Virus record (IMG/VR): IMGVR_UViG_2671180603_000013
Coordinates: 1 to 11,186 of that record
Direction: 5' to 3' (one strand)
DNA length: 11,186 bases
Origin: a virus
Taxonomy: Duplodnaviria > Heunggongvirae > Uroviricota > Caudoviricetes
This document shows, in pieces, positions 5,205-8,280 of this stretch; position 1 is the first letter of the stretch, and each line of letters begins with the position of its first letter. The notes under the pieces are model-generated. The model did not search any database, was not told the DNA's origin, and saw only the letters and a list, made by a program, of their open reading frames with translations. Made by a program: the position numbers and the translations under genes.

Positions 5205-5430
5205 TTCACAATTCAGGCGGTTGACTGTTGTCTGGTTTGCGGGGAGTTTGTTAAAAGAAACTGGCATGGTGAATCCCCCTGTGCGGAGGGGCAATCAGCG
5301 AGTAGGTATATGGGATAATCGCGGATTCAGGTGCTGGTACTGAATTCACCGGGAGGCACCCGGCACCATGCAATGGCACATAGCGCCACTCTCCAGCCCC
5401 TCTCCGGAGGGGCTGTTTATATTGATTTTG
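5205..5430 (+). ncRNA. RNA-like cassette A: conserved TCACAATTCAG / TTGAC(T/A) 5' motif, structured core, intrinsic terminator
   Basis: Paralogous to 7581..7795 and 8047..8280. GCATGGTGAAT (5264-5274) can pair with ATTC...ACCATGC (5344-5371), which is interrupted by a CCGGG/CCCGG hairpin. Ends in terminator AGCCCCTC-tccg-GAGGGGCT plus T-rich tail (5395-5429). Confidence 0.4.
5395..5429 (+). terminator. intrinsic terminator of cassette A
   Basis: 8 bp GC-rich stem, 4 nt loop, followed by GTTTATATTGATTTT. Confidence 0.6.
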
Positions 5431-5449
5431 TCAGATGTGAGTAAACTCC

Positions 5450-5785
5450 TTATGGACTTTGTTGTTTTAGTCCATAAGGACATATTTGCAGAGTGCAACG
5501 GTTATTAAAGCATTCATTCAATACGTTATCTGTATTTGTAGGGCATTCCTGGCTGTTTTTGATTAAATTCCAGAATGTTTTATTGAATGGTACTACGTTG
5601 TAAATGGTTACAGGTAGCACTTTGTTATTGAGCATGATGCCTGTGTGAGTCAGTGTAAATATACTTTCAGGAGGTAAGAAAGCATCCGATTGATACCAGA
5701 TTATTAATTTTATTTTACTCCATATGACTGAAAAAGATATTCCGCATGATGGCTGGATAACTGTATCAATCACAATCCACTTCAT
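5450..5785 (-). CDS. hypothetical protein (111 aa) in an AT-rich moron island
   Basis: Minus-strand ORF with a good ribosome-binding site (AAGGAA, about 6 nt before the ATG) and a candidate sigma70 promoter upstream (TTTACA ... TATACT, + coordinates about 5826-5852). The island is visibly AT-rich relative to its flanks. Cys-rich C-terminal half; no family recognised. Confidence 0.45.
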
Positions 5786-6045
5786 TTAGTTTCCTTGTTT
5801 ATGCCTTGCTGGTGATGTTCTGAAAAGTATAAATGATATTTTTGAATGTAAACCATAGAGCAGAATTATTTTTCTGATGTTGTTTATTGTTTATTTAAAT
5901 GCAGGGTGGTTTATATCTCGTCTTGTAGTTTATCCATGCATATCTGCTTGATAATCAGGTTTTTATTTAAGGTATGGTTTTGTGTTTTTTCTGTATTACA
6001 TGTCAGGTATTTTAAAGAATTATTTTTCAGATGGTGGAAAGAACC

Positions 6046-6192
6046 ATGGCATTTAAACACTATGATGTTGTCAGGGCGGCGCCGCCACAGCCATCTGCTC
6101 ATGCGTTGGGTTCACAAGCAAACCTCAGGCCCACTGCTTTGCGCAAAAGCAGAATGAGCCTATCAGAGACAGGCTTAATGATCCATGCTTAA
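6046..6192 (+). other. 48-codon ORF starting with a nanS-p start-codon fragment (recombination scar); its stop overlaps the methyltransferase start
   Basis: Bases 6046 to about 6085 match the first ~40 bp of the nanS-p gene at 8509 (both encode MAFKHYDVVRAA), then diverge. ATGCTTAA: methyltransferase ATG 6185-6187 overlaps this ORF's TAA 6190-6192. Confidence 0.35.
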
Positions 6193-7243
6193 TACTGTAA
6201 AAATATCCAGTTGTGAGTTAATCAACGCCGACTGCCTGGAATTTATCCGGTCGTTACCCGAAAATTCTGTTGACCTGATAGTCACGGACCCGCCGTACTT
6301 TAAAGTGAAGCCTGAGGGCTGGGATAACCAGTGGAAGGGCGACGATGATTACCTGAAGTGGCTGGACCAGTGTCTGGCGCAGTTCTGGCGGGTGCTGAAA
6401 CCTGCCGGAAGTCTTTACCTGTTCTGTGGTCATCGCCTGGCATCTGATATCGAAATCATGATGCGTGAACGCTTCAGTGTGCTGAACCATATTATCTGGG
6501 CGAAGCCGTCCGGACGCTGGAACGGATGCAACAAGGAAAGCCTGCGGGCGTATTTCCCCGCCACAGAGCGCATTCTGTTCGCGGAACATTATCAGGGGCC
6601 GTATCGTCCGAAAGATGCCGGGTATGCGGCGAAGGGCAGTGCACTGAAACAGCATGTGATGGCCCCGCTGATTTCTTACTTTCGTGATGCGCGAGCTGCC
6701 CTGGGGATAACGGCAAAACAGATTGCAGATGCCACAGGAAAGAAAAACATGGTGTCGCACTGGTTCAGTGCCGGTCAGTGGCAGTTGCCGAATGAAAGCG
6801 ATTATCTGAAATTACAGGCGCTGTTTGCCCGGGTGGCAGAAGAGAAGCATCGGCGTGGTGAACTGGAAAAGCTCCACCACCAGCTGGTGGATACGTATAC
6901 CTCACTGAACCGGCAGTATGCGGAGCTGCTGAGTGAATATAAACATCTGCGGCGGTATTTTGGCGTGACGGTGCAGGTGCCGTATACCGATGTGTGGACG
7001 CATAAACCGGTGCAGTTCTATCCCGGGAAACATCCGTGCGAAAAACCGGCAGAAATGCTGCAGCAGATAATCAGCGCTAGCAGTCGTCCGGGTGACCTGA
7101 TTGCAGATTTTTTCATGGGGTTGGGTTCGACAGTGAAAGCGGCACTGGCGCTCGGGCGTCGTGCAATTGGCGTTGAGCTGGAGACTGAACGTTTTGAGCA
7201 GACGGTTCGGGAAGTACAGGATTTAGTCAGCCAGAACGGATGA
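6185..7243 (+). CDS. DNA methyltransferase, beta-class N6-adenine/N4-cytosine type
   Basis: N-terminal catalytic motif IV DPPY (LIVTDPPYF) and C-terminal AdoMet motif I (DFFMGLGST), the circularly permuted order typical of beta-class amino-MTases. About 120 aa insert between them. No adjacent restriction-endonuclease-like ORF. Confidence 0.85.
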   Translation: MLNTVKISSCELINADCLEFIRSLPENSVDLIVTDPPYFKVKPEGWDNQWKGDDDYLKWLDQCLAQFWRVLKPAGSLYLFCGHRLASDIEIMMRERFSVLNHIIWAKPSGRWNGCNKESLRAYFPATERILFAEHYQGPYRPKDAGYAAKGSALKQHVMAPLISYFRDARAALGITAKQIADATGKKNMVSHWFSAGQWQLPNESDYLKLQALFARVAEEKHRRGELEKLHHQLVDTYTSLNRQYAELLSEYKHLRRYFGVTVQVPYTDVWTHKPVQFYPGKHPCEKPAEMLQQIISASSRPGDLIADFFMGLGSTVKAALALGRRAIGVELETERFEQTVREVQDLVSQNG

Positions 7244-7283
7244 TATTGAAGAATTAATTACGCGTCGTTATTATGCGGCTCCC

Positions 7284-7359
7284 GGCCCTTTAGCTCAGTG
7301 GTGAGAGCGAGCGACTCATAATCGCCAGGTCGCTGGTTCAAATCCAGCAAGGGCCACCA
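7284..7359 (+). tRNA. ileZ: tRNA with CAU anticodon (Ile2 lysidine-type or Met), copy 2
   Basis: Same 76 nt sequence as 4286..4361. Confidence 0.85.
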
Positions 7360-7366
7360 TCACATA

Positions 7367-7443
7367 CCGCCATTAGCTCATCAGGAAAGAGCGCCAGCCT
7401 TCGAAGCTGGCTGCGCGGGGTTCAAGTCCCCGATGGCGGTCCA
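7367..7443 (+). tRNA. argN: tRNA-Arg (anticodon UCG)
   Basis: 77 nt cloverleaf: acceptor CCGCCAT/ATGGCGG, D-arm GCTC-ATCAGGAAA-GAGC, anticodon stem CCAGC/GCTGG with loop CTTCGAA, T-arm CGGGG-TTCAAGT-CCCCG, discriminator T, CCA. Symbol by analogy, from memory. Confidence 0.8.
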
Positions 7444-7456
7444 TTATCTGCATCAT

Positions 7457-7533
7457 GCGTTGTTAGCTCAGCCGGACAGAGCAATTGCCTTCTAAGCAAT
7501 CGGTCACTGGTTCGAATCCAGTACAACGCGCCA
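7457..7533 (+). tRNA. argO: tRNA-Arg (anticodon UCU), copy 2
   Basis: As 4462..4538 but with a perfect acceptor stem (ACAACGC). Confidence 0.85.
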
Positions 7534-7547
7534 CACTTATTTTCCCT

Positions 7548-7573
7548 GGCTCGCTTTTGCGGGCCTTTTTTTT
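7548..7573 (+). terminator. intrinsic terminator after tRNA cluster 2
   Basis: Stem GGCTCGC/GCGGGCC (one G-U pair), TTTT loop, followed by eight T. Confidence 0.6.
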
Positions 7574-7580
7574 AAATGTC

Positions 7581-7795
7581 TCACAATTCAGACGGTTGAC
7601 AGTTGTCTGTTTTGCGGGGAGTTTGTTAAAAGAAACTGGCATGGTGAATCCCCCTGTGCGGAGGGGCAATCAGCGAGTAGGTATATGGGATAATCGCGGA
7701 TTCAGGTGCTGGTACTGAATTCACCGGGAGGCACCCGGCATCATGCAATGGCACATAGCGCCACTCTCCAGCCCTCTCCGGAGGGGCTTTTCTGT
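7581..7795 (+). ncRNA. RNA-like cassette B (near-identical to cassette A)
   Basis: Same 5' motif (CTCACAATTCAG, TTGACA 7596-7601), same core, terminator 7770-7794. Confidence 0.4.
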
Positions 7796-7982
7796 GCCGG
7801 ATACATCACAGTTTCTGGAACCTTAGGTACTACAGTATCAGTCAGGGTGCTATATTTTCAGATGTGATGAAAGCCTGTCAGCAGGCAGGGCGTATCGGAA
7901 ATGACCCAGTAGAGAAAACGTTGACTCAGATACCGGTGCTGAGTTACCGGGAAACCGGCATCACATGACCGCTATCCTTCCA

Positions 7983-8010
7983 GGCCCATCCGCTCCGGTG
8001 GGCCTTTTTA
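7983..8010 (+). terminator. intrinsic terminator in the spacer between cassettes B and C
   Basis: GGCCCA...TGGGCC stem followed by TTTTTA. Confidence 0.5.
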
Positions 8011-8046
8011 CTGCAGAAAACAGGTTCCCCGTTAAATGCTATGTTG

Positions 8047-8280
8047 CTCACAATTCAGTAAGTTGACAGTTGCCTGTCAGACTGGGCATTTGTTAAAAAA
8101 ATTTCGCATGGTGAATCCCCCTGAGCGGAGGGGCGACTGGTGACGGTATAATCTCTGATTATCAAAACGAGAATGACGCGGGTTTAGTGGCACCGGGCTG
8201 AACTCACCGGGAGGCACCCGGCACCATGTGCATGATGATACAGATACGCGGCTTTAGCCCCTCTCCGGAGGGGTTTTCTT
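8047..8280 (+). ncRNA. RNA-like cassette C (diverged paralog of A and B)
   Basis: Conserved 5' motif (CTCACAATTCAG, TTGACA 8064-8069), conserved GCATGGTGAATCCCCCTG and CACCGGGAGGCACCCGGCACCATG blocks, diverged middle containing TGnTATAAT, terminator 8255-8279. Confidence 0.4.

Follow-up and report, generated by a model that had tools for sequence, protein, structure and literature searches.

STnc100-family RNA genes with a covarying pseudoknot in the late-control region of a mosaic lambdoid prophage

We studied a stretch of 11,186 nucleotides (nt) from a virus of the Caudoviricetes (positions 1 to 11,186 of IMG/VR record IMGVR_UViG_2671180603_000013), called the window below, which carries three repeated cassettes, A, B and C. 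The original prediction, made from the letters alone, had proposed them as candidate prophage small RNA (sRNA) genes. We found that A, B and C are full-length members of STnc100, an RNA family already catalogued in lambda-like prophages, and that a diverged fourth copy, D, is present next to them. It is likely that the four are separate genes of the STnc100/EcOnc27/PasD family of lambdoid-prophage sRNAs. Their structured cores share a pseudoknot that covaries across prophage copies from Escherichia, Klebsiella and Salmonella. The STnc100 family, its expression and the Hfq binding of its members are already known from relatives; the pseudoknot, cassette D and a promoter assignment are the small additions made here.

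Results

Identity of cassettes A, B and C

An Rfam search of the window, a check that the original prediction had itself suggested, matched RF02076 (STnc100; gathering score 47 bits) to all three cassettes along the full model (positions 1-206): A at 5235-5424 with 132.4 bits (E = 1e-29), B at 7610-7799 with 123.6 bits (E = 2e-27) and C at 8077-8286 with 161 bits (E = 6e-37). Sequence and alignment contained every block that had been described for the cassettes, in the places given for them, and a terminator scan found terminator-like hairpins at 5394-5415 (A), 7770-7788 (B) and 8256-8275 (C). A and B, described as nearly identical, showed 96.8% identity in the alignment: the 5′ flank has three substitutions, the terminator of B lacks 1 nt, and the cores differ by a single C to U substitution, at 7741 in B, which retains a G.U pair. 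A/B and C are ~84% identical over ungapped columns and have different middle regions. The parts of the cassettes are as follows, P1 being the closing stem of the core, H1 to H4 its inner helices and MFE the minimum free energy.

5205-5227, plus strand: upstream box of A (TTCACAATTCAGGCGGTTGACTG), conserved in A, B, C and phage 933W, its TTGACA part missing in some relatives
5228-5257, plus strand: proposed promoter of A, with -35 TTGTCT at 5228-5233, an 18-nt spacer and extended -10 TGtTAAAAG at 5249-5257; predicted start G5264 (cross-class positional conservation; PasD2 5′ end)
5264-5371, plus strand: structured core of A (Rfam match, MFE fold, covariation, pseudoknot), with P1 5264-5271/5364-5371, H1 5276-5291, H3 5323-5330/5340-5347, H4 5349-5363 and the pseudoknot between 5294-5300 and 5332-5338
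5372-5423, plus strand: variable 3′ tail of A (5372-5393) and terminator hairpin (5394-5415), then UUUAUAUU (terminator scan)
7548-7565: terminator of the tRNA operon that precedes B
7581-7632, plus strand: upstream box and proposed promoter of B, with -35 TTGTCT at 7603-7608 and extended -10 at 7624-7632 (sequence, alignment)
7639-7797, plus strand: RNA of B (Rfam 123.6 bits, fold), with core 7639-7746, tail and weakened terminator 7770-7788; P1 7639-7646/7739-7746 including G7644.U7741, pseudoknot between 7669-7675 and 7707-7713
8047-8099, plus strand: upstream box of C (8047-8069) and proposed promoter, with -35 TTGCCT at 8070-8075 and extended -10 TGtTAAAAA at 8091-8099; predicted start G8106
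8106-8283, plus strand: RNA of C (Rfam 161 bits, fold, terminator), with core 8106-8229, tail 8230-8255 and terminator 8256-8275 plus U-tract; P1 8106-8113/8222-8229, H1 8118-8133, H3 8180-8187/8198-8205, H4 8207-8221, pseudoknot between CUGGUG 8137-8142 and CACCGG 8191-8196

Two likenesses were observed within these parts. The arms of the H1 hairpin, CCCCCUGUGCGGAGGGG, are almost those of the terminator hairpin, CCCCUCUCCGGAGGGG (5276-5291 and 5397-5412; 8118-8133 and 8258-8273). The two hairpins could in principle swap strands, which is probably not general because relatives with other terminators lack the likeness. The upstream box starts with (C/T)TCACA at 5205-5212, 7581-7588 and 8047-8054; the target motif reported as the complement of the PasD seed UGUGAG is CUCACA (PMC8550237 supplement), a likeness that may be coincidental.

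The cassettes had also been likened to prophage anti-sRNAs, which was not borne out. They are not AgvB or AsxR: the corresponding families, RF02702 and RF02703, had no match at E ≤ 0.1 anywhere in the window, and ~150-180 nt predicted for the cassette RNAs compares to 51-60 nt for the anti-sRNAs. The cassettes represent the longer of the two partners, on the sense strand, in the published 'convergent sRNA dyads'. The lambda sRNA PreS/LPR1 was considered as a relative as well; it is unrelated and located in the early left operon.

A shared fold with compensatory changes

For comparison, 84 distinct cores were taken from 120 IMG/VR loci and from phage records. The same four helices (P1, H1, H3 and H4) were present in the MFE folds of A, B, C and D, and the helices of the STnc100 consensus were found in these folds, namely the GCAUGGUG/CACCAUGC closing stem and the CCCCU/AGGGG, GGRUUCAG/CUGAAYUC and CCGGG/CCCGG hairpins. 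RNAalifold, run on 25 diverse cores (D and PasD2 among them) aligned by MAFFT without guidance, recovered P1, H1, H3 and H4, with compensatory changes in 10 of its 25 pairs. Pairs were also counted in a trimmed 80-column alignment of 47 distinct cores. Here 97.1% of the cells were paired, compared to 79% in shuffled alignments (0 of 500 shuffles as high) and 38-45% when the partners were slid. Changes on both sides occurred at 6 of 6 pseudoknot pairs, 7 of 8 H3 pairs and the three outer P1 pairs; the H3 and pseudoknot counts lean towards structure because these columns were picked by complementarity, and the shuffle and random-partner controls used the same picking rule.

Structure prediction and covariation in an alignment, both of which had been suggested as checks, thereby gave shared helices with compensatory changes. 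The pairing of 5′ GCAUGGUG with 3′ CACCAUGC in the original prediction is confirmed and covaries. An extra GAAU/AUUC pairing proposed along with it is lost in C, where AUUC reads ACUC; the stretch belongs to helix H3.

The fold also bears on whether the cassettes encode a small protein (MVNPP...) from a nearly leaderless messenger RNA. An AUG lies at +3 of the predicted transcript, the 25-codon open reading frame (ORF) described earlier, without a Shine-Dalgarno sequence, is real in A and B, and ribosome coverage is 1.5-3.2 in 4 of the 11 STnc100 copies of strain EDL933 (PMC5331693). However, the ORF has 11 codons in C and 63-148 unrelated codons in relatives, conservation is limited to the part fixed by RNA helices, and the substitutions are compensatory for base pairs, not synonymous. 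The lack of a Shine-Dalgarno sequence and the coverage of 0.04-0.65 in the other EDL933 copies point the same way, and we consider a coding role very improbable.

A covarying loop-linker pseudoknot

The 6-7 nt after H1 form a linker that can pair with the loop of H3, giving a pseudoknot. It keeps a fixed place: 2-4 nt lie between H1 and the linker strand, and 0-1 nt between the loop strand and the 3′ strand of H3. At least 10 sequence versions occur there. The versions of linker and loop are listed below.

A/B: linker after H1 AUCAGCG, H3 loop UGCUGGU
C: linker CUGGUG, H3 loop CACCGG
933W: linker CUGGUG, H3 loop UACCAG
Klebsiella prophages: linker CCAGUC, H3 loop GACUGG
Klebsiella prophages: linker GCCAGUCUG, H3 loop UGGACUGGC
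Other variant: linker UAAUGAC, H3 loop GUCAUUG
Other variant: linker ACUGGAUA, H3 loop UAUCCAGU
Other variant: linker GUUCCAGCAG, H3 loop UUGCUGGAGU
PasD: linker AAUGAUC, H3 loop GAUCAUU
D: linker UAUCGG, H3 loop CCGGUG
Fels-1: linker UUGGUUAU, H3 loop AUAGCCAG

The GUGUGGUG/CCAGUC type was for a time taken as 'Salmonella-type', a label that was dropped, as BLAST places the type in Klebsiella prophages. A pseudoknot table at fixed offset was uninformative because subfamilies are shifted by 1-2 nt in register, and a limited-register test and shuffles were used instead. With 12 registers allowed, 6 of 6 pseudoknot pairs were formed in 38 of 45 distinct sequences, compared to 24% with a random family member as partner. 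The longest complementarity between loop and linker had a median of 7 nt (median per-sequence shuffle p 0.025). Of the 8-11 nt of the loop, 6-7 are paired, leaving 0-2 unpaired nt on either side, and we take this geometry to be that of a kissing-type loop interaction. The compact fold that the covarying pseudoknot implies is testable. The pseudoknot is missing from the structure line of the RF02076 model, and a 2026 preprint of the Storz laboratory mentions neither pseudoknot nor promoter.

Proposed promoter and start site

Upstream of the core, relatives have at least three sequence types that are unrelated to one another, each with a -10-like element ending 6-8 nt before P1. The class of A, B and C has TGnTAAAA(A/G) with TTG(C/T)CT 18 nt upstream, the PasD class has TTGAYT-17-TTAAAA and Klebsiella prophages have TTGACA-18-TAAATT. 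These three unrelated promoter types all put the start at P1, and the 5′ end of PasD2, based on RNA sequencing, aligns to the G that opens P1. A sigma-70 promoter with a start at P1 is likely for A-D as well, with G5264 as the predicted start in A and G8106 in C. The GTTGACA sequence, described earlier as part of the shared 5′ motif, is indeed conserved in A, B and C; it sits 25 nt from the -10 and is probably not the working -35, being replaced in some relatives that keep TTG(C/T)CT.

At first we took the cassettes for PR'-tR' units of the StxS kind, that is, a late promoter with a Q-utilisation site and the terminator tR', whose RNAs would be by-products of antitermination like lambda 6S and StxS. 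They do have the layout of promoter, short RNA and terminator in a late region, and StxS is an example of such a leader turned sRNA (PMC7547250). However, a separate unit of this kind stands next to Q in the window:

4148-4250, plus strand: probable true late promoter (PR') of the prophage, overlapping the end of Q, with TTGATT-16-TAAATT at 4148-4175, a pause motif of lambda type (ATAACTATGGG) and, at 4223-4242, a terminator that a T-run follows

The related loci L167 and L209 likewise have AACGATGGG and a terminator after Q, upstream of their STnc100 copies, and in 933W pR' is annotated by Q, with STnc100 2 kb downstream after stxB2. The cassettes lie 1-4 kb beyond Q, and their first 25 nt contain no TAnnnT pause element. 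Moreover, STnc100 occurs with unrelated Q types, always farther downstream, and each late region has two to four copies. The separate PR' in the window and in relatives contradicts the initial idea, to which we now give next to no credence.

A diverged fourth copy

Cassette D, which the original prediction does not mention, lies between B and C. In a relaxed Rfam search it matched STnc100 with 30.1 bits, under the gathering score (E = 1.3e-4 for a 741-nt stretch, 0.0019 for the whole window), and its MFE fold has the architecture of the other cassettes (z = -3.5).

7838-8011, plus strand: cassette D, diverged family member (sub-threshold STnc100 match, MFE fold), with extended -10 TGcTATATT 7848-7856, P1 7862-7869/7959-7966, H1 7873-7886, H3 7922-7929/7939-7946, H4 7947-7958, terminator 7982-8005 and the pseudoknot between UAUCGG 7893-7898 and CCGGUG 7933-7938

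D keeps every architectural element of A-C in different sequence: P1 is AUGUGAUG/CAUCACAU, H1 is GCCUG-UCAG-CAGGC, H3 is UGACUCAG/CUGAGUUA, and H4, stacked on P1, is CCGG-GAAA-CCGG. It is present in 673 of 5426 complete E. coli genomes, and the B-D-C array, with ~470 bp from B to C, recurs in IMG/VR contigs.

Relatives and distribution

The A-type transcript was found in 2786 of the 5426 genomes (about half), at up to 11 places per genome, and several copies per late region were the rule among the loci compared. When genome contigs were scanned with a pattern of 15 specified bases, the matches were all chance ones from unrelated phyla; a third core type had no match by BLAST in the phage collection. 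In four Klebsiella-type loci (L130, L142, L167 and L191), the first clear terminator-like hairpin with a U-run lies ~230 nt after the core, with a conserved block, CUGGUAAAUCGGUAGCUCGGACUAUUAGG, in between.

In phage 933W, the STnc100 match immediately follows stxB2 and precedes the esterase gene; just 3′ of it, the opposite strand carries AsxR. This copy of Shiga toxin (Stx) phages is the Hfq-bound, northern-verified EcOnc27 of strain Sakai, which is sRNA103 of EDL933 (PMC4104026, PMC7873438, PMC12711010). 'Convergent sRNA genes' were reported at the STnc100 position in at least eight Sakai prophages (Tree et al.). In EDL933, the 11 STnc100 copies had 97-1897 reads per kilobase per million mapped reads (RPKM), and one was confirmed by northern blot (PMC5331693); this copy, STnc100_4, could not be matched to A, as its published coordinates do not fit the RefSeq record. 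PasD1 and PasD2 of enteropathogenic E. coli (EPEC), which share ancestry with STnc100 according to the 2026 preprint, are Hfq-dependent RNAs of 172-173 nt with partners found by sequencing of ligated, interacting RNAs (RIL-seq), and their chimeras map to the last ~50 nt (PMC8550237). The 'STnc_100' primers used for vesicles of Shiga toxin-producing E. coli exactly match the A/B variant (PMC12370729). The proposal of structure-selected prophage sRNA genes between Q and lysis is supported by membership of a curated sRNA family, compensatory helix changes and an unconserved ORF, and by homologues that are Hfq-bound and northern-verified (PMC4104026, PMC8550237, PMC5331693, PMC7873438).

Genomic setting

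The window is the late-control region of a mosaic lambdoid prophage of non-Stx type. The cassettes are flanked by Q (PF03589), an esterase gene and a P21-type holin gene, and share the late-region, same-strand setting of STnc100: 146 of 146 STnc100 copies lie on the late-gene strand, between Q, tRNA or stxB and an esterase or holin gene. The features of the window outside the cassettes, and the cassettes' places among them, are as follows.

590-1648: DUF968
1649-2029, plus strand: rusA, first copy
2026-2253, plus strand: truncated Q fragment (75-amino-acid N-terminal part, PF03589)
2958-3332, plus strand: second rusA
3329-4183: Q (PF03589, 284 amino acids)
4286-4361: tRNA-Met(CAT)
4462-4538: tRNA-Arg(TCT)
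Between the first tRNA set and A: two small ORFs
5205-5430: cassette A
5450-5785, minus strand: ORF of 111 amino acids without Pfam match, directly after cassette A
About 6046-6190, plus strand: 5′ fragment of an esterase gene
6185-7243: DNA methylase
7284-7533: three tRNAs
7581-8283: cassettes B, D and C
8287-8375, minus strand: convergent small-RNA-like gene directly after C, with a strong terminator (8315->8294) followed by U7
8509-10362: SASA/DUF1737 esterase
10513-10728: P21-type holin

Each cassette had been said to sit just after tRNAs, which holds for B only; A follows the two small ORFs, and C follows D.

A further reading would make the repeats inert sequence at module boundaries that recombination between mosaic prophages has kept. 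The duplicated rusA, the truncated Q, the esterase 5′ fragment and the two tRNA sets fit such an origin, as does the finding that the element is joined by stx and by tRNA modules at one shared point, with ~110 nt between the tRNA or stxB end and the core. Recombination alone, however, gives no compensatory changes in three helices and no constant H1 and H4 across genera, and relatives are abundantly expressed. We therefore regard inert repeats as hardly credible.

Several further observations concern the neighbouring genes. In the rusA duplication (1649-3332), the first copy is followed by the Q fragment and ~700 bp of other sequence, which looks like a rearrangement or duplication scar. The fragment at ~6046-6190, which immediately precedes the methylase gene, is a repeat of the opening codons of the esterase gene at 8509 (MAFKHYDVVRAA...); this suggests that a module of A and the minus-strand ORF was joined by recombination at the esterase fragment. 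In a near relative (L002) the order is tRNA-DUF3927-STnc100-IraM-esterase, the gene at the position of the 5450-5785 ORF being annotated as anti-adapter protein IraM (RefSeq). In 29 of 146 STnc100 copies a homologue of this ORF follows, in every case on the opposite strand. Between tRNA-Met and tRNA-Arg(TCT), the plus strand at 4362-4461 holds a disrupted remnant of tRNA-Arg(TCG), uncalled by ARAGORN and Rfam; the gene is intact in the second set (7367-7443).

The minus-strand gene at 8287-8375 has a weak OmrA-B-like match below the cut-off (25 bits, E = 0.019), and its 3′ half resembles an EPEC RIL-seq sRNA candidate from the E2348C_1409/1408 intergenic region. Its position matches that of the published 'convergent dyads' (PMC4104026, PMC7873438). 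It is not AsxR, and it has no AgvB/AsxR match in Rfam.

Discussion

A proposed two-module sRNA

We propose that each gene is transcribed from a sigma-70 promoter of its own, in which a weak -35, TTG(C/T)CT, is combined with an extended -10, TGnTAAAA (in D, TGcTATATT). The RNA would start at or within 3 nt of the first P1 base and end at the intrinsic terminator, with a length of ~150-180 nt in the lysogen. During lytic growth, Q-modified polymerase coming from PR' (~4148-4193) would simply transcribe through the genes. The first module of the RNA would be a compact 5′ domain of 105-124 nt. In it, P1 is predicted to close a junction of H1, a variable H2, H3 and H4, with H4 stacked directly on P1 and the H3 loop paired with the 6-7 nt after H1; this core may stabilise the RNA or be functional in another way. 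The second module would be a variable, largely single-stranded 3′ tail with the terminator, which by analogy with PasD could be the Hfq-bound, target-pairing part. Because the tails differ among A/B, C and D, these copies probably regulate different targets in trans.

Several points weigh against this proposal. Expression, Hfq binding and the place of the seed in the tail are carried over from papers on relatives. A consensus promoter scan calls none of the cassette promoters, because the -10 hexamer lacks the usual final T, and the terminator of B is weakened to 6 pairs, compared to 9 in A. Regarding the fold, the lean of the H3 and pseudoknot counts has been mentioned, and the sequence of H1 and H4 never varies across genera in the 47 cores. 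For sRNA103, only overexpression effects on fimZ and espA are reported, and no STnc100 target is validated. Finally, ribosome profiling of enterohaemorrhagic E. coli gave several STnc100 copies with coverage above 1 (PMC5331693).

The invariance of H1 and H4 exceeds the needs of a scaffold, so that the core may have a function of its own. The 105-124-nt domain would then be an autonomous, tertiary-folded RNA module rather than just the body of a seed-bearing sRNA, with the tail secondary; it might bind a protein or a small molecule, or act in cis on the late transcript through its processing or stability or by insulating the lysis genes. H1 (CCCCU-NNGCGG-AGGGG), H4 (CCGGG-AGGCA-CCCGG), the AAUC linker and an A spacer are invariant, while promoters, H2, H3, the pseudoknot sequence, tails and terminators are exchanged among relatives, and the domain has long been kept in prophages of Escherichia, Shigella, Klebsiella and Salmonella through the exchange of promoters and pairing tails. 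A junction locked by the pseudoknot, the fixed place just upstream of the esterase and lysis genes in Escherichia, Klebsiella and Salmonella prophages and the several copies per late region also fit. However, no partner or ligand is known, no Rfam family other than STnc100 matches the core, and D and PasD retain the architecture without the invariant H1 and H4 sequences. Moreover, the RIL-seq chimeras of PasD map to the tail, as in an ordinary sRNA. On balance, we think it unlikely that the domain is the functional unit and prefer trans-acting sRNAs that pair through their tails.

Variants linked to haemolytic uraemic syndrome

The STnc100 family immediately adjoins the Shiga toxin genes in Stx phages. 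A 2025 machine-learning study found variants of the STnc100 element to be the strongest genomic predictors of haemolytic uraemic syndrome (HUS) (PMC12711010). The low-HUS-risk variants, in Stx2c-type phages, are a T>C at ~+90 and a single-T deletion at ~+103 after stx2B, and were placed 'within STnc100' (PMC12711010). In Stx2 phages (L001 2544-2558; L003, L004), the T>C turns the TG of the proposed extended -10 into CG, and the deletion shortens the spacer to the start. In our reading, which is not that of PMC12711010, the variants would hit the promoter of the STnc100 gene. As our promoter assignment puts them on the extended -10 TG and the start spacer, we predict that they alter the amount of the RNA. 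The window itself is ordinary, a mosaic non-Stx prophage with four copies of a catalogued RNA.

Comparison with known systems

STnc100 was first listed in Salmonella, and A-C share its helices, its late-region position and its multicopy habit; Fels-1 of Salmonella LT2 has three matches between Q and holin. The Rfam structure line starts 29 nt upstream of the start predicted here.

EcOnc27/sRNA103 resembles C in its 5′ box and promoter region, and the arrangement with a convergent partner is alike; the 933W copy scores 208 bits against STnc100. It differs in having its own H2 and tail/terminator, and its partner is AsxR, whereas the window has a different small gene at this place and no stx.

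PasD1 and PasD2 of EPEC E2348/69 have a core homologous to that of A-C (P1, H1, H3 and pseudoknot), and the position of PasD2, after a DUF3927 gene and before an esterase or holin gene, is alike. However, PasD is below the Rfam cut-off, has a shortened H4 and carries another tail, with the UGUGAG seed that A-D lack.

StxS and lambda 6S are likewise short, terminated late-region RNAs made in lysogens, and StxS binds Hfq. In contrast to the cassettes, which have an unrelated sequence and their own proposed downstream promoters, they arise from PR' beside Q. AgvB and AsxR are shorter (51-60 nt), lie on the opposite strand and have no structural core, but they share the prophage hotspot and are convergent, antisense-strand neighbours of STnc100-type genes.

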